Shown one piece after another: positions 4,335-57,835 of a stretch of 64,000 bases of DNA. Source of the DNA: Escherichia phage vB_EcoM_DalCa; the sequence record NC_054908.1. One strand, written 5' to 3'. Position 1 is the stretch's first letter. The number at the start of each line of letters is the position of its first letter. Under the pieces are notes generated by a model. It saw nothing but the letters and a program-made list of their open reading frames with translations, did not search any database and had not been told where the DNA came from. The position numbers and the translations under genes were made by a program.

Positions 4335-4606
4335 TATTTAAAACGAATAGTTGAATCCTTAAAGAACAGCCCAGAATATACTGTTCCTTCTACTTTCTGC
4401 CCGGTAGGTCCAATAGCACGAAATCCAGTATGCTGGAAATCATTTTCAGAGCAACCGAACCAGTTATATCCAGTGATTTCAATATTAGTAAACCCACTTG
4501 AAGACAAAACTTTGGTTGCATTATCAGCATCAGTACATCCTACTAAAGATACTGCTAATACTAATGCCGCGATAGAACGATTAACATATTTCATAATTTC
4601 ACTCAA
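4334..4606 (-). CDS. putative lipoprotein
   Basis: 90 aa ORF; hydrophobic signal sequence ending in lipobox-like LVGC; start may be the internal Met (MKYVNRS). Confidence 0.5.
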   Translation of the reverse strand: MSEIMKYVNRSIAALVLAVSLVGCTDADNATKVLSSSGFTNIEITGYNWFGCSENDFQHTGFRAIGPTGQKVEGTVYSGLFFKDSTIRFK

Positions 4607-4976
4607 ATTTAATGGCTTGAAGGAGACTAATAATTCTCAAGCGACTTCTTTCATCTTTAACCGTAAATGAAAGAGGGTCACCAGATTTCATAGTGATAGT
4701 GCATTCAAAATCAAAATCTTCAGGAACTTCTTCGAAGAAGTCAAATTCTTCATCATAAATTAGAACATTACTCTGAAAACTGTGAAGAATTTTTCCATCA
4801 TTTCCAGATGCTGTACTAATCATTGTAACGTTATTACCTTTCATATCTTCAACGATAAATTCGCTTGTAGATATTACATTACTAATAGAACCATTCCTAT
4901 AAATAGCAGAAAATAGATATTTCTTTTCTTCACCTTCGCGAATGCGATATTTCTTACCGATTTTAAACATAATCAC
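4599..4976 (-). CDS. hypothetical protein
   Basis: 125 aa ORF, co-directional, 8 nt overlap with downstream gene. Confidence 0.5.
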   Translation of the reverse strand: MIMFKIGKKYRIREGEEKKYLFSAIYRNGSISNVISTSEFIVEDMKGNNVTMISTASGNDGKILHSFQSNVLIYDEEFDFFEEVPEDFDFECTITMKSGDPLSFTVKDERSRLRIISLLQAIKFE

Positions 4977-5149
4977 CCTTTAAGTAAGTCGTAAAATCCA
5001 CCATTCACATGCTTAGGAGCAGAAACTAACCGAACAGCAATCCGATGACAATCAGGACATACATCAGTATCCCTTTCAGAAATTTTCTTGATTTTTTCGT
5101 ATTCTTTTGCGCAGTCTTTTGATTGACATTTATAATCATAAAGAGGCAT
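4973..5149 (-). CDS. FmdB-type zinc-ribbon small protein
   Basis: 58 aa ORF below the ORF-track cutoff; MPLYDYKCQSKDC...CPDCH pattern; ATG overlaps upstream stop (TAATTATG) and its stop overlaps next start. Confidence 0.5.
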   Translation of the reverse strand: MPLYDYKCQSKDCAKEYEKIKKISERDTDVCPDCHRIAVRLVSAPKHVNGGFYDLLKG

Positions 5150-5151
5150 AA

Positions 5152-5571
5152 TTATTCCTTAAAGTGAGCTTTCAACATCTGATACAAGGACCATGCCTGT
5201 TCATTATTTTCAATAGTAACTTTCATGATCGGGAATTCTGTGAAATCTTCTATTTGTTCTTGCTCTTCCTGCTCTTGTTCTTCAGCTGCCTGATATGGAT
5301 TTTCCACTTCATTAAAGAACTCAGCTTCGCTCGTTGAAAGCCAAATAAAATCTTCATCCAAAATATCTTTACCGGAGGATAACGCCAATCTTCCAGTAGA
5401 TGTCACAATTTTAGTAGGACGACCAAGATGGTCAATATCTATAACTTTAAAAGGTTCCATACCTAAACGCCGCGCATAGATTCCGTTATCAGTATGGTCT
5501 TTAATAAAATTTTCTTGAGCTTGTTTATTTTTAAATTGATACCATTTATTAACTTCAAATTTAATAGCCAT
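5152..5571 (-). CDS. hypothetical acidic protein
   Basis: 139 aa ORF with [10 protein letters not shown] acidic tract. Confidence 0.5.
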
Positions 5572-6452: not shown

Positions 6453-6525
6453 AATTATCTCTCACTTGTTAAAAAGATTTTATACTCCACAGGACCATTA
6501 TACTCTGGTCCCAAGAGTTTGTAAA

Positions 6526-7074
6526 CTAGCTTACACGAACATTAATCACTGCGCTACGAGGAACTACAGAGTATTCTCCAGCATGAACTACGTTCAGAAG
6601 TTCAACGCCATCTTCAATCCACTGGTCTGTTACCCAACCACAGATAGGATTATCAAAAGGACGACGGATAGACACAGCAGCACACAACAGGTCTGTAGGG
6701 TCTTGTTCTTCAACTTCTTGGAACAGGATGAACTCATCTTCATAAACCAGGTTTTTCTTTATTTTGTTATTATCTAACCGGCGACCGTGGATGACGTAAG
6801 ATTTGTCAAACCACTCACTTTTGGCAAATTCTTCAACAATAAATTCGCCTTCGCCAAAAACATCAGTCAGAGTTTTATGACCAGAAATCAAGGCATTAGT
6901 TTTAATTTTAGGTTCAACCAGTTTGTAGGTTTTGCCGATTTCAATAGCGGTAGTCATAGTAGGTTCCTTAATTTCCAGTGGTTTAACAGGGCATACATAA
7001 GTGCTTACAACATCAAAATCAATCAGTTTAGCTACCGGATTTGGTATGTATTCAGGATTATAATTAAATTTCAT
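6526..7074 (-). CDS. hypothetical protein, paralog of 5961..6452
   Basis: 182 aa; C-terminal VTDQWIEDGVELLNVVHAGEYSVVP. Confidence 0.55.
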   Translation of the reverse strand: MKFNYNPEYIPNPVAKLIDFDVVSTYVCPVKPLEIKEPTMTTAIEIGKTYKLVEPKIKTNALISGHKTLTDVFGEGEFIVEEFAKSEWFDKSYVIHGRRLDNNKIKKNLVYEDEFILFQEVEEQDPTDLLCAAVSIRRPFDNPICGWVTDQWIEDGVELLNVVHAGEYSVVPRSAVINVRVS

Positions 7075-7076
7075 AA

Positions 7077-7577
7077 TTATCTCATTTCAATAAAATCTAC
7101 GAGTTCAGCATGCGATTTGCGGAACATTACTTGGTGCCCACCAATGATAACTTCATCTTCAGGAACTTCGTATACAGCGAGATAAAATCCTTTAGAAGAT
7201 AATTCTTCCCGCTCTTCTCGTGTGAACCATCTCATCATATCATATTCACTAGCGAAAGCAAAATGATAAAGACCTATAAACCATCCTGGAATATGATATT
7301 CTACTCCAACATAATCTTTCTTGAACTTAGTATTAATTACTATATTAGCGTTTTTAACTAATAGTTTATCTTCGTGTGGTAAAGGAATTCTTTTATTATT
7401 ATCGCTATGATGCATAAAATTAGGTCTGTCATAACCTACGTGTAATAGCCACTCTTCGCTCCATGAATCTATTATACTCCTGTACGGCGTTATTTGAACA
7501 CAAAGATTTCGACGTATTGTTATAGCATCTTCATAATCAAGAATACTAAACGATGATTCAACACGATAAATTTTCAT
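7077..7577 (-). CDS. hypothetical protein
   Basis: ORF-track ORF 7077..7616; likely start at internal Met (MKIYRVESS) preceded by GAGGA; longer start would overlap the promoter at 7600..7634. Confidence 0.5.
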   Translation of the reverse strand: MKIYRVESSFSILDYEDAITIRRNLCVQITPYRSIIDSWSEEWLLHVGYDRPNFMHHSDNNKRIPLPHEDKLLVKNANIVINTKFKKDYVGVEYHIPGWFIGLYHFAFASEYDMMRWFTREEREELSSKGFYLAVYEVPEDEVIIGGHQVMFRKSHAELVDFIEMR

Positions 7578-7599
7578 TTTATTATCCTCAGTAGCTATG

Positions 7600-7634
7600 G
7601 TGTTATAATACCACAACTAACCGAGGAAGTAAAC
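7600..7634 (-). promoter_or_regulatory. T4-type early promoter
   Basis: minus strand GTTTAC then TATTATAA. Confidence 0.5.
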
Positions 7635-7640
7635 AACTTT

Positions 7641-8324
7641 TTATCGTTTTGTTGGAAGAGATAGAGGATCGCAATCTTCCTCTGACGGAGCATCTTCAAG
7701 ACCCATAGCATATCGCAAAGCATACTTCATCATCAGAATATCTTTCGCACAGTCATGAATAGAATCATGCGCAACGAATCCATCTAAAGTTCCTTTTGGA
7801 AGAGGACACGTGGTCATATCACGAACAAGCAGAAGTGCTTCAATTCTGGTACGAATATCACGCTGATTCCAGAATTTACATGGTTCTAACTTAAATGTGT
7901 CAAGCTCATTCTCAGAAACACCATTAAGACGTTGAATATCACGAATGAGATCGACTAAAATTGGAAAATCAAACGACATTCCACGGCACCAGCCTTGAGA
8001 TTTCCAAGGATCGATATTATGTGCATTGATGTAATCATTAAATTTTGCAATACCATCGATGGTGCTTACATCTTCATCTGATGGTGCAATATTTTTTCGA
8101 GCTTCAGGAGACTGATTTTTCCACCATTCGATAGTGCTTTTAGTAAAAAGACGATGTCCTTTTTGGCTTTTTAAATCAAATTTGATTTTAATGCCGCGTG
8201 AAACTAATTCATCAAATGTTTCAACTACTTCTGGGTTAGGGTCAAAAGCAATTACAGCTAAATCAATAACAGCTGCTTTTTCACCACTTCCCATTGTTTC
8301 AAAATCTATAATAAAATCAAACAT
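7641..8324 (-). CDS. dexA: exonuclease A (DEDDh 3'-5' exonuclease)
   Basis: 227 aa as T4 DexA; N-terminal DFETMG exonuclease motif; position upstream of dda. Confidence 0.85.
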   Translation of the reverse strand: MFDFIIDFETMGSGEKAAVIDLAVIAFDPNPEVVETFDELVSRGIKIKFDLKSQKGHRLFTKSTIEWWKNQSPEARKNIAPSDEDVSTIDGIAKFNDYINAHNIDPWKSQGWCRGMSFDFPILVDLIRDIQRLNGVSENELDTFKLEPCKFWNQRDIRTRIEALLLVRDMTTCPLPKGTLDGFVAHDSIHDCAKDILMMKYALRYAMGLEDAPSEEDCDPLSLPTKR

Positions 8325-8599
8325 TAAATTTTCCTTGCTAAATCGCGAATTTGACCTACAGTATAATCTTGAATATAAACTTTATTAATAGGTTCATCAA
8401 TAAATTTTGCCATAGATTCAATATCTTTTTGCATCTCTTCAAGACTGTATATTATCTTTAAAGCTTTTTCGCGAATAGTAATATTTTCAGGACCAGAATT
8501 TTTCTCAATGACAGCTTTAACATTTGTCATAAGAGATTTAAACTGTTGCAAACTTAATTCAATCATTAATAACCGCCTTATAAAGATGGCTAATTTCAC
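8324..8599 (-). CDS. hypothetical protein (dexA.1-like)
   Basis: 91 aa ORF; start uncertain. Confidence 0.45.
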   Translation of the reverse strand: MKLAIFIRRLLMIELSLQQFKSLMTNVKAVIEKNSGPENITIREKALKIIYSLEEMQKDIESMAKFIDEPINKVYIQDYTVGQIRDLARKI

Positions 8600-13036: not shown

Positions 13037-13507
13037 CTAGCGATAAAAACCAAATTGACGATTAGCTTCAATAATCTTTCTTTCTTCTTCGGACATTCTC
13101 CAGCGTAGTCCAACATCAAAATGGGCCCAGACCATCTTAACAAATGCATTTATATCTTTAATATCTTCAATAATGAATGTTTTACTTTTCGAAGGTTGAC
13201 TCGCTAATTTAACTTTATCATCTTCAAACAGGTCAAAAAGACCATATTCATGAGCTCTTTTATAGCCTTTAATAGTTAAAGCTTCAGAAGAAGAAAACGG
13301 TGAATCAGTATTCTGCAAAATATCTTCAGTATGCTTTATAATTAGAATAATATTTTCTGGATATTTTCTTTCTTTTATATCTTTAATTAAAAAATCCGGA
13401 TTTTCTGCTAAAGGAATAATTAATGAGCATTTTTTATCAAGTGTATTTACTGATTTACCTTCTTTAGACATGAATTCTACTGAATAATGTTTTGCTACTT
13501 CAATCAT
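13037..13507 (-). CDS. hypothetical protein
   Basis: 156 aa ORF. Confidence 0.5.
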
Positions 13508-13664
13508 GTGATTTCCTTTTGCCTACTAATGGACCATCGGGAATTTTGTTTTCCTGGATATATTTCTCATTTTCTTCCATCATTTTACTACCAATTTTAA
13601 GAAGCAAATCCAGTGCTTCATTTGCTTTAACCTTAGCTTCTTCTAACGTCATATCTTTGTTCAT
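13500..13664 (-). CDS. small hypothetical protein
   Basis: 54 aa ORF read by hand ([13 protein letters not shown]...); ATG overlaps upstream stop as ATGA. Confidence 0.35.
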
Positions 13665-15253: not shown

Positions 15254-15427
15254 TCAATCTTCAATGAAAACTTGTGCCAGGAATTCATGCTCATCTTGAA
15301 TTTGTTTATATAAAGCCATTACAGCATTTATGTTAGAGCTATCTACTTTAAGTTGATAAGCATACCACTCATGTAAATTAATTAAAGCTTTTTGACGTCT
15401 AATAAATTCTTCTTTGGATATTTTCAT
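15254..15427 (-). CDS. small hypothetical protein
   Basis: 57 aa ORF read by hand (MKISKEEFIRRQ...); ATGA overlap with upstream stop. Confidence 0.35.
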   Translation of the reverse strand: MKISKEEFIRRQKALINLHEWYAYQLKVDSSNINAVMALYKQIQDEHEFLAQVFIED

Positions 15428-16213: not shown

Positions 16214-16414
16214 ATGGTACAAAAATTAATGGCACTTGTTAATGCCATCAAAGGTAATAAGAAACGTATAGCTTTTACTATTTCTGCTATGGTAGGAATT
16301 TTACTCTGGAACTTTATTTTATCACCAATTGCAATTGCGCATGGTGTTAATATTCCAGTAGTTACTCTTGATACATTCGTAGATCTAGCATTTGCTTTAG
16401 TTGGGTTAATTTAA
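16214..16414 (+). CDS. small single-pass membrane protein (plus strand)
   Basis: 66 aa ORF with AAGGAGG 4 nt before ATG; hydrophobic core; only convincing plus-strand ORF in window, in the 56-61 intergenic gap. Confidence 0.45.
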   Translation: MVQKLMALVNAIKGNKKRIAFTISAMVGILLWNFILSPIAIAHGVNIPVVTLDTFVDLAFALVGLI

Positions 16415-17441: not shown

Positions 17442-17606
17442 TTACTCTTCTTTTTCTTTAGATTCCTCTTTTTTCTTTTTAGGAATCTGTTCAGGACCTT
17501 TATTTACTACAGCACCTGACGTTGTTCCAGTGGAGATATTTTCAGGATTACCACCTGAATCTCCAGCTACCATATCTTCTTTAATAAATTCTTTATATGT
17601 TTTCAT
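17442..17606 (-). CDS. small Lys/Glu-rich protein
   Basis: 54 aa ORF read by hand (MKTYKEFIKEDMVAG...), GAGG RBS. Confidence 0.35.
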   Translation of the reverse strand: MKTYKEFIKEDMVAGDSGGNPENISTGTTSGAVVNKGPEQIPKKKKEESKEKEE

Positions 17607-24082: not shown

Positions 24083-24232
24083 TCAATTGATACATTCATA
24101 TTTAACTTGTAACAGTAATAAACCCCACCCTATGATAAGAGTTGGAATCATAAGAGGAACCGTTACACTATAGTATATACTTATTATAATCATCAAGATT
24201 AAAAGCAACACTGCTATAATTTTGCTTTTCAT
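24083..24232 (-). CDS. small hydrophobic protein
   Basis: 49 aa ORF (MKSKIIAVLLLILMIIISIYY...), codon-checked; ATG overlaps imm stop as ATGA. Confidence 0.4.
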   Translation of the reverse strand: MKSKIIAVLLLILMIIISIYYSVTVPLMIPTLIIGWGLLLLQVKYECIN

Positions 24233-25298: not shown

Positions 25299-27995
25299 TC
25301 AGCCAAACAGGAAGTCTAACGAAGCTTTTTCTTCATAGTCCATACCTGCCGATTCACACATACCCGCAAGCGGTTTAACAAACGATTTTTGGAACAAAGT
25401 TGAGTAGTCAATCCAAGATAGTACATCAGAACGAATTTCTTTTGGAAGTTCTGTACCTGATGGCCAAGCAATGCACTTGTCACCAAATGGATTTCCTTCA
25501 CGCAATGGAAGGACCATTACTTTATTTCCATCCAAAATTGGAGCTACACCCAGACCACTAACAGCTCGACGATAAGTTAGCACACCACGAATATGGAACG
25601 GACATTTAAATCCTGGCCAACCTTTATCATCATATTTCGCTATATCGTTCGCAGTTTTTACTTCAGCAATAACTTTATAGTCAAGTTGACGATATTCTTT
25701 CTCGAAGTTCTTGTAATATTCTTGGACAGACTCTTCACCTTCCTGAAGAATACGACGAATACTTTCTTCGAGAGCTTCTTGGACCGCTTTAGGCGTTGAA
25801 CTCTGCTGAGTTTCCATACCCATGATTTTTAGATGTGGTTCAGCAAATCGCTTATCTTCCATATCATAAACGTTCAGAGCATAACGCTTTTTCGCTTTCC
25901 AAAATCCACCAACGCCCTTTGAACCAAGTGGAGGGCAAGAAATAGCTTCACGGTCCATATGCATCAGATGCTCGCGGTTATTCATATAATCACATAACTC
26001 ACGATATGCAACATCAATCATAGGTTCCATCTTTTTCTTACCGAACTGATTCATGAATTCAACTAAATCGTTCTGCTCTTTGAATCGGTCAAGACCAACT
26101 TTTTCAATAACTTTATCTACACAAACATATACCGAATCAGTATCACCTGCTGCGATGAAATCTTCACCATTAGTTCCGCACACTTTATTCAGATACTCAT
26201 TAATTTTACGAGCAATCCACTGAATACCAACTTGACCAAAAATTGTGATAGCAGTAGCATTTCGCAAATCATAGTAACGGAAATGAATATTACCAAGAGC
26301 ACCGTAAAGGCTGTTAATAAGAATTTTACGGTTCAGCTGATTTGTATTAGCAAGTGTAGCCGCTTTTTCACATTCCTCAATCAGACTATTGAGAACAGAT
26401 TCAGTATAATTCGATAGTTCATTTAAGAAATCATCACTGAACTTAACATATCGTTCAACTTCAGGTTTAGTTGAACAAGACCCTGCGCCTTTCATAATAA
26501 TCTTTTTAATAGCTTCGGCATTCATTTCTTCAGCGAACATTTTCTTTTTCCAATCTTTACGCTGGAAAAATACTTTAGCGATTTCCTTTGGAATGATACC
26601 TTCTTGATGCTTATCATACATCCATCCATTCGGAGAACAAGAATATTCATCACTCGGTTTAGGAGCTGTTCCTGCGATATATTCATGAATTGGATGAACT
26701 TTAAACTGACCACGAATAGTCTCAGGACTAATGTTAACCTGACGAATAATGCTAGGATACAGAGACGTCAAGTCAAAACTCATAATATATCGACGAGCAA
26801 TTGGTTTAGGTTCAAATACAAATGCACCTGGAAAACTTTGTTTAACGTGCGAACCTTGTTGAGGAATAACCTTATGTTCACCTTTCAATGAGTTAAAAAT
26901 AATAGCATCCCAGGTTTTAATAGGACTCATTACACCAGAAAAAGGCATTTTAGCGTAATAAGACATACTTAAAACTAGATCGATAAACCCGCGAATTTTA
27001 TCAATTGCTTGAACTGATTCTACGTCAATGATGTTATAACTAATATATCGTTGATGATTAGTCTCACGAAGTTTATTAATAGGACCATCGTACGGCAATT
27101 TACCTTTTTTGGTTTCGTGCTGAGCAACTGATTCCAAAGAGAATGATGGCAAATTAGTAAATGCGAATTTTTTGTACAAATCTAAATAATCAAGAATAGA
27201 TACGCCATCAATCGAATAAATTTCTTTGCTACCGTACATATTTTGAATTAGTTTAGATTTTACTCGACCGATTGGAGAGAAGCGTTTCATACTACGTTCA
27301 CCAAGAACCATTTTAACACGATTCATGATATACGGAACGTCAAATCCCTCAATATTCCAACCAGTAAAAATAGCAGGTCGTTTCTGTTCCCAGAGATTAA
27401 TATATTCCATGAGCATATCACGCTCATTATCAAATGGCATATAAATTACTCGGTCAAGAATTTCTTGAGGAACTTCATCACCACCTTCACAGTCAAGTTT
27501 AGCAGCTAACTTTGCATCCCATTTTGATACTGAACCGTACATTGAATTCAACAAATCAAAGACGTAAAAACGATCGTCAATTGAATCATAATGAGTGATA
27601 GCATCAATTTCATATTCCGCTTTCATTGGGTCAGGAAATTTATCGCCAGTAACCTCAATGTCACAGTTAGCTACACGAACAAATTTTCGGTCATAAACAA
27701 TTTCTGAACCATATGTATCACTGATATAAGCGAGTTTAAAATCGTTCATACCGAGAGCTTCGAGACCGATGTCTTCCATTCGTTTCATCCAATCTCGAGC
27801 ATCTTTCATTGATGGAAATTTTTGAGGAGCGCAGTTTTTACCATAAATGTCTTTGTACTTTGACTCTTCCTTACAATGTCTAAACATAGTTGGAAGATAT
27901 TCTACTTCACGAGTACGTTCCTTTCCGTTTTCATCAATATAACGTTCAACAATGTTATTTCCGACTGTTTCAATAGAGATATAAAATTCTTTCAT
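25299..27995 (-). CDS. 43: DNA polymerase gp43 (family B)
   Basis: 898 aa as T4 gp43; family B motifs (DxxSLYPS-like, YGDTDS). Confidence 0.95.
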   Translation of the reverse strand: MKEFYISIETVGNNIVERYIDENGKERTREVEYLPTMFRHCKEESKYKDIYGKNCAPQKFPSMKDARDWMKRMEDIGLEALGMNDFKLAYISDTYGSEIVYDRKFVRVANCDIEVTGDKFPDPMKAEYEIDAITHYDSIDDRFYVFDLLNSMYGSVSKWDAKLAAKLDCEGGDEVPQEILDRVIYMPFDNERDMLMEYINLWEQKRPAIFTGWNIEGFDVPYIMNRVKMVLGERSMKRFSPIGRVKSKLIQNMYGSKEIYSIDGVSILDYLDLYKKFAFTNLPSFSLESVAQHETKKGKLPYDGPINKLRETNHQRYISYNIIDVESVQAIDKIRGFIDLVLSMSYYAKMPFSGVMSPIKTWDAIIFNSLKGEHKVIPQQGSHVKQSFPGAFVFEPKPIARRYIMSFDLTSLYPSIIRQVNISPETIRGQFKVHPIHEYIAGTAPKPSDEYSCSPNGWMYDKHQEGIIPKEIAKVFFQRKDWKKKMFAEEMNAEAIKKIIMKGAGSCSTKPEVERYVKFSDDFLNELSNYTESVLNSLIEECEKAATLANTNQLNRKILINSLYGALGNIHFRYYDLRNATAITIFGQVGIQWIARKINEYLNKVCGTNGEDFIAAGDTDSVYVCVDKVIEKVGLDRFKEQNDLVEFMNQFGKKKMEPMIDVAYRELCDYMNNREHLMHMDREAISCPPLGSKGVGGFWKAKKRYALNVYDMEDKRFAEPHLKIMGMETQQSSTPKAVQEALEESIRRILQEGEESVQEYYKNFEKEYRQLDYKVIAEVKTANDIAKYDDKGWPGFKCPFHIRGVLTYRRAVSGLGVAPILDGNKVMVLPLREGNPFGDKCIAWPSGTELPKEIRSDVLSWIDYSTLFQKSFVKPLAGMCESAGMDYEEKASLDFLFG

Positions 27996-33757: not shown

Positions 33758-34773
33758 TGTGTTGCCTCTACATATAACTGATTTGCATATTGAATAAGTG
33801 CTTCGCGATCAGAATCAGTGATGTCTGGAATTGCATTAATGTATTCTTCCATCAACGTCTGAAGAGGTTGAACTTCAACTTCTTCACTGTCATCTGACTC
33901 GACAGAGTTATCAATCTTTGACACAACTCGTAATGAATGCACAACTTTTTCTAGTTCAGATTCGAACTTCGTTAGATTTTTGTCTACTTCAGTTACTATA
34001 ACACGTACTGATAGATTTGTAAAATCTTTATAGTCAATTTTTCCTTTAAATGGATAATGAATTCTACGATGCCAGGTAGTATTGTTTGGAATAAATTCCA
34101 TTCGTTCTGTTTCTGTATCAAACATCCAGAACCCACGAGGGTCATTCTCGTCACCTGCAGTTAGTGTCCATGGTGTCCCAATATATCTGACGTTTGCAGC
34201 CTCAGAAATAGTATGGAAGTGACCAGACCACACTTCTTTATAAGTCTTAAGGAAATCAGGTTCAAGACCATGAGATTTCATTCCTTTATAAAAATAAAAT
34301 CCATTCAGTTCCCAGTGACCAACACAAAAAGAAGCAGATGAAGTTTTGATGTGTTCAAGAATTTCACCAGTATTTTCTTCACACATCCAAGGAATTAAAT
34401 CAATTAAACATCCGTCAAAATCTACTGTAGTAGGCTTATCATATACTTTAACATTAGGATATTTAGCCAAAAGCTCAGTAGAGGCATTTGGAGTTAAAGT
34501 ATTTTTAAAGTGCATATCATGGTTTCCTACAATAGTATGTAGGGTAATACCAGCATCATCAAGCATTTGAACTATTTCACGAGCAAACTCCATAGTTTTA
34601 TGCGTGATCGCTTTTCGCACATCAAAAATATCGCCGTATTGAATCCAGGTAGTAATTCCATTTTTCTTAGAATATTCTATTGCTTGTTTAATTCCATCCA
34701 ACTGAATGGATTGAACCCACTCATCATCAGCTTTAACGCCTAAATGCCAATCACCTAAATTTAAAATTTTCAT
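33754..34773 (-). CDS. 47: recombination nuclease subunit gp47 (Mre11/SbcD-like)
   Basis: 339 aa as T4 gp47; phosphoesterase motifs LGDWHLG, GNHD, GHWE. Confidence 0.9.
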   Translation of the reverse strand: MKILNLGDWHLGVKADDEWVQSIQLDGIKQAIEYSKKNGITTWIQYGDIFDVRKAITHKTMEFAREIVQMLDDAGITLHTIVGNHDMHFKNTLTPNASTELLAKYPNVKVYDKPTTVDFDGCLIDLIPWMCEENTGEILEHIKTSSASFCVGHWELNGFYFYKGMKSHGLEPDFLKTYKEVWSGHFHTISEAANVRYIGTPWTLTAGDENDPRGFWMFDTETERMEFIPNNTTWHRRIHYPFKGKIDYKDFTNLSVRVIVTEVDKNLTKFESELEKVVHSLRVVSKIDNSVESDDSEEVEVQPLQTLMEEYINAIPDITDSDREALIQYANQLYVEATQ

Positions 34774-34934
34774 ATATCAAGAACCGTCATTGAAATGCAA
34801 AATAAAATTATTGAAATAAATCCATCTGGAGTGCTAAAGAACCCAATCCAACATGCTCTAGTGAATAGATAAAATGCAAGAAAAAGTATCACATATCCAA
34901 GAAATATCATTATATCAAACTCCGTATAAAGCTA

Positions 34935-36204: not shown

Positions 36205-36220
36205 AGGAGCCGAAGCTCCT
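36205..36220 (-). terminator. stem-loop upstream of alpha-gt
   Basis: aggagccgaagctcct. Confidence 0.5.
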
Positions 36221-36395
36221 ATCCACATAATACGCCATACAGAGGCTCATTAGAACTTTTAAATTTTATGCGCTTATATTTTATAGTTCCTTCTGCTTTA
36301 GCTTTATCATGAGACGCTTTAAAGAGTCTCATCATTTCCTCTTTAGAGGAACGAATTTTATTATAATCTATTTCAGAAGTCTGGGTGTTCATCTT

Positions 36396-39260: not shown

Positions 39261-39396
39261 GATCGCAAATCATGCGTTTATGTAACTTGAGTATAATATA
39301 GCAAACTTCAAAACTATTTACATGAGTAACACGAACAGCATTACCATTAATGAGATAATACTGTCCCTTTTTAATTTCTTTATCAACCACAACCAT
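39214..39396 (-). CDS. hypothetical protein
   Basis: 60 aa ORF downstream of promoter 39426..39455. Confidence 0.4.
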   Translation of the reverse strand: MVVVDKEIKKGQYYLINGNAVRVTHVNSFEVCYIILKLHKRMICDRVAFSSVAKEIKHHG

Positions 39397-39425
39397 ATCA
39401 ATTCCTCAAAGGCAATTCATGTGTT

Positions 39426-39455
39426 AATAATACCACAGTTTGAACTTGTTGTAAA
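39426..39455 (-). promoter_or_regulatory. T4-type early promoter
   Basis: minus strand GTTTAC, 18 nt, TATTAT. Confidence 0.55.
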
Positions 39456-39536
39456 CAACTTTGTGAAAATTATTTTAGGGAATGATAAGAAGGGAACGAT
39501 AGCTTAGAATGGTAATATACAGAATGTGAGAAAGAA

Positions 39537-39551
39537 GGGCCCAGAGGGCCC
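39537..39551 (-). terminator. stem-loop downstream of nrdH-like gene
   Basis: gggcccagagggccc palindrome. Confidence 0.5.
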
Positions 39552-39554
39552 GTC

Positions 39555-43291: not shown

Positions 43292-43795
43292 TCAAGTATT
43301 GTAAAACATTTGATGCAATCGCTTATATTGCTGAATCATTCGGTCAGAAAAAGAAATTTGAGTTTCAAGCCATTCAATGTATTCTGCGGCAGCTTGCATC
43401 AGGTTACCTTCATAGCCATCGTTATTTTCTTGCGCAGCTAATTTAGCTAATGCGTATGAAATACGTTCACCTTGAAAATCGGCTTTAGGCTTCTGAACAA
43501 CTTGATTAGTTCGCTCTACAACTTCTTCAATTTCGCCATTTTCAACGGATTCAGTATTCCATAAGCACCAATACGTAATTGGCTTATCATAGATATTAAT
43601 AATCTTTCCGTCGGAAAGTTCAATTTCAATAATTCCAGTATCAGGCTCTATATCATCTTCACATTCTTTTGCAAGTTCACGAACTTTAAAGACAGTACCT
43701 GCACTAAGTTCCGGCCAGTAATTACACAGCCCTGTATCAGCACGATTAATTCTAAACCACTTATCTACTGTAATCATGTCCCATCTCCATATCAA
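43292..43795 (-). CDS. hypothetical protein (Pin-like by position)
   Basis: 167 aa ORF adjacent to gene 49 where T4 pin (about 161 aa) lies. Confidence 0.5.
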   Translation of the reverse strand: MIWRWDMITVDKWFRINRADTGLCNYWPELSAGTVFKVRELAKECEDDIEPDTGIIEIELSDGKIINIYDKPITYWCLWNTESVENGEIEEVVERTNQVVQKPKADFQGERISYALAKLAAQENNDGYEGNLMQAAAEYIEWLETQISFSDRMIQQYKRLHQMFYNT

Positions 43796-43900
43796 TTAAG
43801 TCATTTATCGTTGGTTCATTATATACTGTTTCTTCATCAGTGTAAACCGGTTCTTCCGGCTCTGGCTCTACAGTTTCCCATCTAGCCGCCCACCAAGGTT

Positions 43901-44221
43901 TTATAGCGTAATCCATTCTCGTACTATCTGAGTTACTACACGTTCACGGGGCTCGACTAGTTCAACAGTCGGAACTGCATAATACCAGTCAGAATGATAA
44001 GAACCTGACCGAGATTCATTTACCGCTACATGTACATTATGTTTTGGACTAAAGTAAACACACTGACGATATTGGCATTTACCATCTTGCACCCAGTCTT
44101 CTATTTCGATAGGTTTAAGATAGTCGGAAAAATCGAAATCATAGTTTTCCGAAAATGCATCATGGTCTTCAATAATTTCGCTCAGAACTGCATCAACATC
44201 TAATTTATTTTCAATAGTCAT
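43901..44221 (-). CDS. hypothetical protein
   Basis: 106 aa ORF. Confidence 0.45.
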   Translation of the reverse strand: MTIENKLDVDAVLSEIIEDHDAFSENYDFDFSDYLKPIEIEDWVQDGKCQYRQCVYFSPKHNVHVAVNESRSGSYHSDWYYAVPTVELVEPRERVVTQIVREWITL

Positions 44222-44231
44222 TTTTCACCAA

Positions 44232-44441
44232 TTAATTTCGCAATTTATTAAGTTCTTCATCATCAATCCAGGATTCTAGTCCTGATGGCAGGTCACATTC
44301 AATTTCCCAAAGAAGTTCTTCAATTTTCTGAAGACGATCTAGTTCTTCGGCTGGAATAGTAACCATTGACGGAGCTCGTGATACATTAATATCGTAAATC
44401 ATATTTACCCCAGTTTGACCATACAATCGCCGTATTTCCAC
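44232..44441 (-). CDS. hypothetical protein
   Basis: 69 aa ORF. Confidence 0.4.
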   Translation of the reverse strand: MEIRRLYGQTGVNMIYDINVSRAPSMVTIPAEELDRLQKIEELLWEIECDLPSGLESWIDDEELNKLRN

Positions 44442-51853: not shown

Positions 51854-52117
51854 TTATTTTAATGTTTGCCAAATTTTTACTGCTTCACGACGAGATACTT
51901 CTACAGCTCCAAGTTCTACAGCTTTTTGGCGTCGCCGAGCGTGTAAGTCATAATGTTTAATGCGTTTATCTTGAAACCAAGAACGTTTCATTCCTATTGC
52001 TTCTGCCATTTCGTGAAGCTCTTCAATATCTCCATCAGTGAACATATGACAATTTTTAGTTGGATGACCGCGAAGTTTCCATCCATGATTCATTAAAACA
52101 TCTACGTAAACTGTCAT
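51854..52117 (-). CDS. hypothetical protein
   Basis: 87 aa ORF. Confidence 0.45.
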   Translation of the reverse strand: MTVYVDVLMNHGWKLRGHPTKNCHMFTDGDIEELHEMAEAIGMKRSWFQDKRIKHYDLHARRRQKAVELGAVEVSRREAVKIWQTLK

Positions 52118-52263
52118 TGATTCTTCTCCAAATAAGTTTCGATAATTTTCTGGGCGAGATAAACCGCGTTATCTTCAGTTGCGTCTTCCAAGAAACTTTC
52201 AAAACACTCTGAAATTTCTTCTGTATCAATCAACTTTTTTACTTCAATTGGTGTAATTTTCAT
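52114..52263 (-). CDS. small hypothetical protein
   Basis: 49 aa ORF read by hand (MKITPIEVKKLIDTEE...), ATGA overlap with downstream start. Confidence 0.35.
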   Translation of the reverse strand: MKITPIEVKKLIDTEEISECFESFLEDATEDNAVYLAQKIIETYLEKNQ

Positions 52264-52299
52264 TTTGTTTTCCGTTTAAGTGTTTGTTTTGATAGTTGT

Positions 52300-52329
52300 A
52301 TAGTACCATAAAGCTTTATGCTTGTAAAC
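52300..52329 (-). promoter_or_regulatory. T4-type early promoter
   Basis: minus strand GTTTAC, 18 nt, TACTAT; directly after terminator 52359..52376. Confidence 0.55.
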
Positions 52330-52358
52330 AGTTTTGTGAAAAATTTTTGAAATAAAAA

Positions 52359-52376
52359 GGGAGCCCGAAGGCTCCC
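52359..52376 (-). terminator. stem-loop terminator downstream of nucleotidyltransferase gene
   Basis: gggagcccgaaggctccc followed by U-run and early promoter on minus strand. Confidence 0.65.
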
Positions 52377-52378
52377 TA

Positions 52379-53392
52379 TCATTTATAATAACTTCGGTGG
52401 TTTTCAAGATAGACCTTCTCAAGGAAGTCATCCCAGAAACTCATGTCTACTGTTTTAGGCATACCGTTCTTAGAAGCTTCAATAGATGCTGCTTCTACTT
52501 GATCGACCACATCTTCCAAAAACTCTTGAACCGTTTTAAATGGATGTTTACCCAACTTCACGTCGAGAATAAATGGAGCATCTTGGAGTGGATAAACCAA
52601 GTCACCAGTTTTGTAAATTTCCAATAGTTGGAGTCCACCACGGCAAGCATGACTCAGAGCTTTCCAGTCAATACCTTCATTGGCTTCGGCCTTACGAGCA
52701 CGTTCACCATATTCAGCATCTAATTTGTTCAGTGACTGCTTAAGCTCAATAAGAGAAAGCGTTGTCTGATATTTACGACCCAACACAGTGTAGAACGTTT
52801 GTGGGCCTGTTTTCTCATGATTATGGAACACCCATTCACAGAATTCGTTTTCTGGAAGACGATGCTTAATATCTTCAACTTTAGTGCGACGCTGCTTAAT
52901 AGAACCATCTTCTTGGTAATCAATCCACTGCTCAGGGATTTGATTAACTACTTTCAATACATCACGTAATGCAGCCAAACGAGAACCCTTGACACCGTAT
53001 TTAGAAGCTTGCTTGCGGACATATCCTAAATAGGATTTCATGTTAGTCGTATAAAAACGAGAACGGTTGTCTTGAATAAACTTCCACACATCAGGCAAAT
53101 CAGATTTAACCACTAGTTCAGGTGGAGTGTGAAGCATATCCAATGCTACAGTTTCACCATCTGCTGCTAATTTAAAGAAATATTTAAGACTGTATAGTTC
53201 ATGGTCAATATCATCTTTAGTGTTTTTAGATGATGTGTTGTTAGTGTTTTTACTCATGTGCTCTTTGACATTTCCGATAAGAATATCACGAGCAGGAGGA
53301 ACAAAAATTTCTTTAAAATCTACATCAGATTCTGGGGTAGAAGTTCCATAAAGATGACTACCAAAATAGCTTTTCATTACTGTTTTCATCAT
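52379..53392 (-). CDS. Pol-beta-superfamily nucleotidyltransferase of unknown function
   Basis: 337 aa; N-terminal GS-x9-DxD signature (YFGSHLYGTSTPESDVDF) and helical C-terminal domain. Confidence 0.6.
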   Translation of the reverse strand: MMKTVMKSYFGSHLYGTSTPESDVDFKEIFVPPARDILIGNVKEHMSKNTNNTSSKNTKDDIDHELYSLKYFFKLAADGETVALDMLHTPPELVVKSDLPDVWKFIQDNRSRFYTTNMKSYLGYVRKQASKYGVKGSRLAALRDVLKVVNQIPEQWIDYQEDGSIKQRRTKVEDIKHRLPENEFCEWVFHNHEKTGPQTFYTVLGRKYQTTLSLIELKQSLNKLDAEYGERARKAEANEGIDWKALSHACRGGLQLLEIYKTGDLVYPLQDAPFILDVKLGKHPFKTVQEFLEDVVDQVEAASIEASKNGMPKTVDMSFWDDFLEKVYLENHRSYYK

Positions 53393-55086: not shown

Positions 55087-55260
55087 TTGTAAACCATTAA
55101 ATGACGTTTTCGATAAAATTCTGAAGCTTTGTATGAGCATCAACCATGATTTTCATTTCTTCTTTAGCGAAAGCTGTACCTCTTTCCCGAGAAGAATACT
55201 CATAATCAGAAACTGCATTAGCATATTCTTCAATTAGCTTCATTAAAAACATCTGCTTTT
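55087..55260 (-). CDS. small hypothetical protein
   Basis: 57 aa ORF read by hand, TAATG overlap. Confidence 0.3.
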
Positions 55261-55454
55261 CAGTTTTCATTATTCCACCTAATCATTTCAAGATATTGAA
55301 CTAACTTAGCTTTAGATTTATCCAAATCCTTTTTAGCTGATTCTATACCATCGTATGAATATCCTTCACAATGCTCAACTGCTAATTGGTATGAATCTAT
55401 TTCAATATCACGTGCTAATTTAATGATTTTTTCAAACTGTTCGCGTGTTAGCAT
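55260..55454 (-). CDS. hypothetical protein
   Basis: 64 aa ORF. Confidence 0.4.
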   Translation of the reverse strand: MLTREQFEKIIKLARDIEIDSYQLAVEHCEGYSYDGIESAKKDLDKSKAKLVQYLEMIRWNNEN

Positions 55455-56681: not shown

Positions 56682-56846
56682 TCAAGGTATTTTTTCAAAA
56701 TTTCGCAATCTAGTATAGTCTGCCGGAGATTGGTTGAGTGATACTTCTCGACGCAAAGCTGAAATAACATTTCCAACTTCCCTACGAATTTCATCTAATT
56801 GAAGCACAGTAAGATTGCGAAGTTGCTTTTCAGTTAATTGTAGCAT
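56682..56846 (-). CDS. small hypothetical protein
   Basis: 54 aa ORF read by hand ([12 protein letters not shown]...), AAAGGGG RBS. Confidence 0.35.
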
Positions 56847-57479: not shown

Positions 57480-57665
57480 TTAAAGCATATTCACATAAGC
57501 TATTAATTCGTTTTCTTTCTTATCAAACCGATCAGCAAATTCTTCTTGCTGTTCGGGAGATAGCGGGCCGTATTCATCATAAAAGGTGTTTGCTTCTGTA
57601 TGCTCATCTAGAAGTTCATGGATAAGCTCAAACAATTTATCTTTTTGTTCTTTACTCAGACTCAT
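57480..57665 (-). CDS. hypothetical acidic protein
   Basis: 61 aa ORF. Confidence 0.4.
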   Translation of the reverse strand: MSLSKEQKDKLFELIHELLDEHTEANTFYDEYGPLSPEQQEEFADRFDKKENELIAYVNML

Positions 57666-57835
57666 ATATTAATTTCCAGGAGTTTTAAAATAATTCGCTT
57701 TTGCTTAAATATTTCCATAGTTAAATGACCAGTATCTTTTTGACCGATTCCAATGGCAAAACCTTTATTGACAGCGAGTTCAATTAAATTATCAATCTCA
57801 CGTAACACTTCATACTGTAACTCAAAACTATTCAT
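57662..57835 (-). CDS. small hypothetical protein
   Basis: 57 aa ORF read by hand, ATGA overlaps at both ends. Confidence 0.35.
   Translation of the reverse strand: MNSFELQYEVLREIDNLIELAVNKGFAIGIGQKDTGHLTMEIFKQKRIILKLLEINI

Follow-up and report, generated by a model that had tools for sequence, protein, structure and literature searches.

The stretch of DNA analysed here, referred to as the window, comprises 64,000 nucleotides (nt) of the genome of Escherichia phage vB_EcoM_DalCa (NC_054908.1) and is the early-gene region of a Tequatrovirus. Every gene of the window is carried by the minus strand, in the same order as in phage T4 (from rIIA/39 to e), and among annotated phages, Yersinia phage fPS-65 and vB_EcoM_C2-3 are its closest relatives. 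We focused on nine small open reading frames (ORFs), the first of which lies at 4973..5149, that had been proposed in an earlier note made from the sequence alone and that fall below a 60-amino-acid (aa) cutoff for ORF calling. Eight of the nine coordinate pairs correspond exactly to frames of 49-58 aa running from an ATG to a stop codon. The ninth pair, 55087..55260, is open on neither strand; it had been misplaced by 10 nt, and the true ORF behind it lies at 55097..55270. All nine frames are on the minus strand, a point absent from the earlier note, and this is the strand of all features described below unless stated otherwise.

The lead ORF (4973..5149) encodes a protein of 58 aa, MPLYDYKCQSKDCAKEYEKIKKISERDTDVCPDCHRIAVRLVSAPKHVNGGFYDLLKG, and is located between goF (5152..5571) and an ORF of 123 aa (4599..4970). 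Its product matches the annotated protein DalCa_006 exactly. In comparison with Gp39.2 of a resequenced T4 (MT984581), 57 of the 58 residues are identical over the full length, with one conservative substitution in this phage, I37 for L37. The T4 gene has the same length and occupies the same slot between goF and 39.1/39, and the four cysteines and the GGFYDLLKG tail are all shared. The position downstream of goF, within the motB-gene 39 cluster, is kept; however, DalCa carries the 123-aa ORF as an insertion between 39.2 and 39.1. The region around the lead ORF matches 664 phage genomes at 90-98% identity, nearly all of them T4-like phages of Escherichia, Shigella and Yersinia, and the protein itself was found by tblastn in 874 phage records, of which 860 cover at least 80% of its length. 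A Shine-Dalgarno (SD) sequence, AAGGA, is present 7 nt upstream of the ATG, with a duplex energy of -6.1 kcal/mol. Judged by its sequence, the lead ORF is the orthologue of T4 39.2, whose product is reportedly the NwgI of Ang and Georgopoulos (Genetics, 2012), and a bona fide member of the FmdB-type zinc ribbon family.

The membership in this family, which the earlier note had already proposed, is borne out by two models that both score above their curated cutoffs: TIGR02605 (CxxC_CxxC_SSSS) with 44.8 bits (cutoff 31.3, E=9.4e-12) and PF09723 (Zn_ribbon_8) with 43.2 bits (cutoff 34.4, E=3.9e-11). Residues 1-8 of the protein, MPLYDYKC, fit the MPxYxYxC start of the family, and the alignment to the hidden Markov model (HMM) begins at residue 1; the same N-terminus was found in 66 viral loci. 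The resemblance to the family thus includes a domain start at Met-1, a spacing of 17 residues between the knuckles (residues 14-30) and a SAP motif after them. The zinc-ribbon pattern, which had been described as clean, is real and contains four cysteines, but it is not canonical. Indeed, the second knuckle is a CxxC (C31-P-D-C34), whereas the first is a C-x4-C (C8-QSKD-C13) where the family has a CxxC. The C-x4-C form is found in all T-even orthologues, so that none of them carries two CxxC knuckles, although the four Cys ligands are still there. The tails differ as well: the TIGR02605 model is named after a degenerate Ser-rich tail, whereas that of 39.2 is conserved and specific to T-even phages (SAPKHVNGGFYDLLKG, with GGFYDLL). 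In this single-domain protein, the four cysteines (C8, C13, C31 and C34) presumably hold one Zn.

Several lines of evidence concern the nine frames as a set. All of them are conserved at full length, in 69-1431 phage genomes (tblastn against GenBank phages), and conservation in related phages was one of the points on which the earlier note had let its proposal stand or fall. The tblastn search was used instead of scans of IMG/VR, which for some ORFs yielded only 4 to 15 T4-like loci each. Moreover, each of the nine frames matches a PHROG family, with E-values between 1e-24 and 1e-37. The ratio of non-synonymous to synonymous substitution rates (dN/dS), determined pairwise against orthologues by the Nei-Gojobori method, is 0.02-0.17 for 39.2, 0.03-0.20 for modA.4, 0.09-0.14 for 61.1 and at most 0.3 for the others, except for 42.1, where the range of 0.1-0.5 rests on few substitutions. 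These values are well below 1 and indicate purifying selection on the frames. In six of the nine, the SD duplex energy lies between -5.5 and -8.0 kcal/mol, close or equal to the median for large genes (-5.9, as compared with -1.6 for all ATGs). We also considered the 24 gaps of at least 120 nt that separate minus-strand genes of at least 60 aa: a sense ATG-ORF of 45 aa or more is present in 13 of them and an antisense one in 2, and when the gaps are shuffled, ORFs as long as those observed arise in 0-4% of trials. Finally, a mechanical tiling of the minus strand with ORFs covers 94% of the window and recovers the noted small frames together with further ones. Because they are widely conserved, matched by PHROG families and low in dN/dS, the nine frames are genes and not chance ORFs; the proposal that genuine small protein-coding genes had been missed by the 60-aa cutoff is therefore upheld.

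In contrast, the description of their locations as intergenic gaps does not hold, as the frames correspond to genes already catalogued in T4 (39.2, modA.4, 61.1, rI.1 and mobD.2a) or in RB32 (42.1), and the remaining ones are annotated in relatives as hypothetical proteins. Orthology with T4 modA.4, 61.1, mobD.2a and rI.1 and with RB32 42.1 is seen both in sequence (87-98% identity) and in position, and the same applies to 47.1 and 49.1 of T4, two genes outside the list that are described below. modA.4 (13500..13664, 54 aa) is 96% identical to its T4 counterpart and matches phrog_2681 (E=4.7e-37); its 3' end overlaps the start of modA.3 by 8 nt. 61.1 (17442..17606, 54 aa) is likewise 96% identical to T4 61.1. 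A literature search found no functional study of 61.1, modA.4 or mobD.2a.

Two of the catalogued genes are affected by frameshifts, one in DalCa and the other in T4. rI.1 (56682..56846) encodes 54 aa here and 70 aa in T4 and, according to the alignment, in fPS-65. DalCa has one extra A in an A5 run compared with these two phages, and it is only because of this +1 frameshift of a 70-aa gene that the frame falls below 60 aa. Either the extra A reflects a real mutation or it arose as a sequencing error in the homopolymer; an identical 54-aa product is annotated as DalCa_108. Conversely, mobD.2a (55097..55270) is full-length in DalCa, with 57 aa and a DUF7438 domain (PF24219, E=2.4e-16), whereas the T4 gene is truncated, a frameshift there having led to a 38-aa annotation. 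mobD.2a was found in 642 phage records by tblastn.

The remaining four frames comprise 42.1 and three genes annotated as hypothetical proteins. 42.1 (24083..24232), so named in RB32, encodes a hydrophobic protein of 49 aa that matches phrog_3610 and occurs in 744 phage records. At the protein level, it is 92% identical to the translation of T4 DNA 26230..26376, which is unannotated in the T4 RefSeq record, as is the gene in fPS-65. The gene upstream of 42.1 is imm, for superinfection immunity (PF14373 Imm). From its sequence, the 42.1 product looks like a two-helix membrane hairpin, and a role as partner of Imm in the membrane is conceivable. The frame at 15254..15427 is an accessory ORF of 57 aa (phrog_9053, E=1.7e-25) that lies between soc and gene 56, where T4 has segF. 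It was found by tblastn in 69 phage records, and in RB14 the corresponding DNA is unannotated; a T4 homologue was not found. The frame at 57662..57835, in the tk.1-tk.3 cluster, encodes 57 aa (phrog_3452, E=1.5e-33), has ATGA overlaps at both ends, occurs in 437 phage records with dN/dS values of 0.13-0.24, and is annotated as ECML134_108 and, with an exact match, as DalCa_111. The frame at 52114..52263 encodes an acidic protein of 49 aa (phrog_6888, E=5.5e-31; 161 phage records; dN/dS of 0.14 against ZCEC15), and its stop codon forms an ATGA overlap with the start of a DUF4031 gene (51854..52117). In phage vB_Eco_ZCEC15 (PQ871103, 1367..2557), we noted a deletion of ~92 nt that removes the terminator region after nrdC.11 (compare 52114..53392 of the window) and fuses a nucleotidyltransferase in frame with the homologue of this 49-aa ORF; the fusion is annotated as a protein of 396 aa. 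Searches of Pfam and NCBIfam gave no match for modA.4, 42.1, the frames at 15254, 52114 and 57662, or the long homologues of 61.1.

The small genes had also been described as translationally coupled, the ATG of each overlapping the upstream stop codon as ATGA or TAATG. Such an overlap exists in five of the nine cases. The start codon truly overlaps the stop of the upstream gene as ATGA in the frames at 13500 (with srh), 15254, 24083 (with imm) and 57662, and mobD.2a shares 11 nt with the mobD.3 orthologue upstream of it; a 'TAATG' present at this place is out of frame with mobD.3. Two further genes are separated from their upstream neighbour by short spacers, of 2 nt between goF and 39.2 (TAA-tt-ATG) and of 1 nt in front of 61.1 (TAA-t-ATG). 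The last two are uncoupled. The frame at 52114..52263 is preceded by a terminator hairpin and an early-promoter-like sequence, which suggests that it is the first cistron of its transcript, and the only frame that abuts it is a spurious one of 40 aa. rI.1 starts 42 nt past the tk stop codon and is preceded by a late-promoter motif (TATAAATA) and by a strong SD of its own; with a duplex energy of -8.0 kcal/mol this SD is the strongest of the nine, and there is no coupling to tk.

The four ATGA overlaps, the 11-nt overlap at 55097 and the 1-2 nt spacers of 39.2 and 61.1 are compatible with an expression of the small ORFs that would depend on termination-reinitiation coupling to the upstream gene. 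In addition, among the frames preceded by a gene, the two with the weakest SDs (15254 and 24083) both show the ATGA overlap, and this combination makes them the best candidates for real coupling. However, six of the nine SDs are as strong as those of independent large genes, and two frames have no adjacent upstream gene. Furthermore, tight junctions are the norm in this DNA: among 122 junctions of the window, there are 46 overlaps and a further 16 with spacers of 0-5 nt, so that overlap, or a distance of 5 nt or less, at 62 of 122 junctions is a genome-wide packing feature. As coupling is not something that sequence alone can demonstrate, we consider a dependence of these ORFs on it to be possible but somewhat doubtful.

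For 39.2, the arrangement of the neighbouring signals can be described further. A sigma-70-type early promoter, TTTACA-17-TATAAT, is predicted upstream of motB (6497..6525) from 11 of 12 consensus matches, the evidence being that of the consensus only. In fPS-65, an early promoter is annotated at the equivalent place and a terminator is annotated after 39.1. Taken together, the promoter match and the fPS-65 terminator suggest one early polycistronic mRNA. 39.2 would then be transcribed in an early message motB-cef-goF-39.2-ORF123-39.1, with a likely start at the 6497..6525 promoter, and this transcript structure, like any translational coupling within it, is at most likely. A sigma-70-like match on the plus strand inside 39.2 (5123..5152) was discounted, as promoter-like hits in the region number 6 as compared with 9.8 in shuffled sequences. 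T4 lacks the 123-aa ORF that lies at 4599..4970 between 39.2 and 39.1. A weak PHROG match (phrog_13003, E=4e-7) relates this ORF to the GoF family, and it is possibly a paralogue of GoF.

The legacy T4 reference differs at this locus. In NC_000866/AF158101 (5398..5839), 39.2 is annotated with 45 aa and 39.1 with 65 aa. Both lengths stem from old errors in the sequence, which include an extra T, the cause of the 45-aa length of 39.2, and the divergence of the stretch mentioned next. At least nine modern T4 assemblies show a 5% difference from the reference over a 161-nt stretch, and MT984581, the sole resequenced T4 examined directly, has a 58-aa 39.2 followed immediately by an 86-aa 39.1.

T-even phages provide a general precedent for small proteins that act in host takeover or against host defences, and the earlier note had viewed the nine small proteins as candidates for such effectors. 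The accounts given in PMC5153855 and PMC4396842 describe T4 Gp39.2 as a 58-residue peptide that moves GroEL to an open state able to accept GroES or Gp31, and they report that a T4 39.2 deletion does not grow on particular groEL mutants. By orthology, the DalCa protein is NwgI and would act on the host GroEL as these accounts describe for T4; this function is taken from the T4 literature. An action on a host protein amounts to host modulation, and several of the frames are variable accessory genes, being present in 69-437 genomes only. Nevertheless, Pfam, NCBIfam and PHROGs gave no match between any of the nine and a characterised family of anti-defence proteins, so that the anti-defence role finds no support there. 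Rather than being variable, 61.1 and 42.1 occur almost universally in the group, and rI.1 works in lysis inhibition, as an accessory control (PMC2962797). As far as the cited accounts go, GroEL modulation by 39.2 and accessory control of lysis inhibition by rI.1 are the only experimentally known roles among the nine. On balance, it is improbable that these proteins are, as a set, host-takeover or anti-defence effectors.

A different function is implied by the label 'FmdB-like transcriptional regulator', which is used for Gp39.2 in RefSeq and in the PHROG annotation. Nucleic acid binding is possible for small zinc ribbons. However, the label goes back to a single putative regulator, FmdB, and NCBIfam now names the family just 'FmdB family zinc ribbon protein'. 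Apart from the ribbon, the 58 aa contain no recognisable DNA-binding domain, and the experimental data on the T4 protein, as given in the two accounts cited above, concern GroEL only. A role as transcriptional regulator is thus very improbable. Other product names used in relatives are artefacts of name collision: modA.4 and modA.2 appear as 'molybdenum ABC transporter ModA', mobD.4 as 'molybdopterin-guanine dinucleotide biosynthesis protein MobD', dexA.2 as 'dextranase' and imm.1 as 'iduronate sulfatase'.

Published T4 omics data class every T4 counterpart as early RNA. ModA.4, RI.1 and 49.1 were detected as proteins, ModA.4 with the class early-RNA/middle-protein, and no protein class is given for 39.2, 61.1, 47.1 and mobD.2a. 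That the nine frames are untranslated chance ORFs in AT-rich intergenic DNA deserves hardly any credence: short ORFs are common, many antisense or out-of-frame ORFs of 40-150 aa overlap real genes, a spurious 40-aa frame at 52260..52382 spans the terminator and the promoter, three frames have weak SDs and three T4 counterparts have no protein-level class, but the full-length conservation of all nine effectively refutes this explanation, and the PHROG matches, the low dN/dS, the gaps filled far more often by sense ORFs than by antisense or shuffled ones, the detection of ModA.4 and RI.1 in T4 and the reported phenotype of the T4 39.2 deletion all speak against it.

Some observations nonetheless weigh against our interpretation of the nine frames and of their lead member. 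Three frames have weak SDs, those at 15254 (-2.1), 24083 (-3.6) and 52114 (-3.5 kcal/mol). For Gp39.2, gp61.1 and mobD.2a, which lack a T4 protein class, the support for translation consists of conservation and SD signals only. The GroEL mechanism rests on two secondary descriptions, those in PMC5153855 and PMC4396842. An AlphaFold2 model of Gp39.2, built from an alignment of 8 sequences, shows four short beta-strands with a mean predicted local distance difference test (pLDDT) score of only 54.8, and a sequence search of the PDB found no solved relative and gave only chance hits with E near 1; with a low-confidence model and no solved relative, the zinc-ribbon fold of Gp39.2 is one that we infer from sequence models. 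A large homologue search on Gp39.2 returned 10 T-even clusters only, too shallow a set to improve the model. Taking both sides together, we hold with high confidence that these frames represent ordinary small genes, all of them catalogued before, in the packed minus-strand early/middle clusters of a T4-like phage, the lead gene being 39.2.

Comparable small ORFs are present elsewhere in the window and had been missing from the list. 47.1 (34770..34910), annotated in T4, encodes a predicted membrane peptide of 46 aa (phrog_6693, E=1.5e-31). An ORF of 57 aa at 36219..36392 carries a DUF5486 domain (PF17588, E=8.5e-38). 49.1 (43761..43916, 51 aa, phrog_2382) overlaps both of its neighbours, and its T4 counterpart is the protein detected by proteomics that is mentioned above. 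A strongly acidic ORF of 56 aa at 44232..44402 matches phrog_3402, named 'antitoxin from a toxin-antitoxin system' (E=1.5e-40). We also noted a sub-threshold likeness of this last protein to the T7 Gp5.9 RecBCD inhibitor (PF25708, 20.5 bits with a cutoff of 24.5; phrog_6234, E=8.6e-4). On the plus strand, two gaps between minus-strand genes (16236..16410 and 39261..39554) contain antisense ORFs of 61 aa and no sense ones, and the annotation of fPS-65 places a plus-strand coding sequence, g034, next to a terminator in the dam-61 gap.

Among the listed genes, 61.1 shows a relationship with the major capsid protein gp23. The gene is located directly upstream of the primase gene 61 (TAA-aa-ATG) and was found by tblastn in 1431 phage records, including T4-like phages of Klebsiella, Aeromonas, Acinetobacter and Vibrio. 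In Ceceduovirus, Pseudotevenvirus and Gualtarvirus, the 61.1 module forms the C-terminus of a protein of 148-163 aa, and it is always situated just upstream of the primase gene. Residues 1-10 of gp61.1 (MKTYKEFIKE) match the capsid-targeting sequence (CTS) of IPII and IPIII (MKTYQEFIAE) at 8 of 10 positions, and the key residues Y4, F7, I8 and E10 are kept; experiments have defined positions 4 and 7 as key for targeting and positions 8 and 10 as key for processing by gp21 (PMC9026906). BLASTP aligned residues 2-38 of gp61.1 with residues 57-93 of gp23 (E=1e-8 in the pairwise comparison, with 43% identity). Ten diverse homologues of 61.1 were used to build an HMM which, run against 1261 T4 ORF segments, matched gp23 residues 59-100 with E=1.7e-11, the next match having E=3.3; gp23 occupies 6946-8511 of the T4 comparison segment. 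In a PDB-wide search, gp23 chains were the sole matches for 61.1. By these alignments, residues 2-42 of gp61.1 are homologous to residues 57-100 of gp23. Some databases tag 61.1 as 'major capsid domain-containing protein', and in the library searched, no paper that deals with it was found.

The aligned segment of gp23 crosses the maturation cleavage site E65|A66 and includes the first residues of mature gp23*. These first residues make up the 'N-fist' of 25 residues, which touches four adjacent subunits and has a part in forming the Soc site (PMC9958956). Compared with gp23, IPII and IPIII, gp61.1 is a free-standing protein of 54 aa with a Lys-rich tail, encoded beside the primase gene and transcribed early. 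We propose tentatively, as an idea that is rather unlikely to prove correct as a whole, that gp61.1 would reproduce, as a separate protein, the maturation site and the N-fist of gp23, and begin with a functional-looking CTS. It might enter the prohead, where gp21 would cut it to leave an internal or capsid-binding peptide of 44 residues with a predicted start at DMVAGD, or it might compete for the recognisers of that gp23 segment, such as the gp21 protease, the N-fist docking sites or a host sensor.

For the most part, these results are a rediscovery of catalogued small genes of T-even phages; the function of the lead gene was already published, and the finding as such matters little. It does carry some cautions for the annotation of these phages. 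A 60-aa ORF cutoff conceals roughly a dozen real genes in this 64-kb window. Database names are often misleading, those of 39.2 as a transcriptional regulator and of modA.4 as a molybdenum transporter being examples, and 39.2 and 39.1 are mis-stated in the legacy T4 reference. Only the relation between gp61.1 and gp23 might give rise to new experimental work on the assembly of the T4 head.

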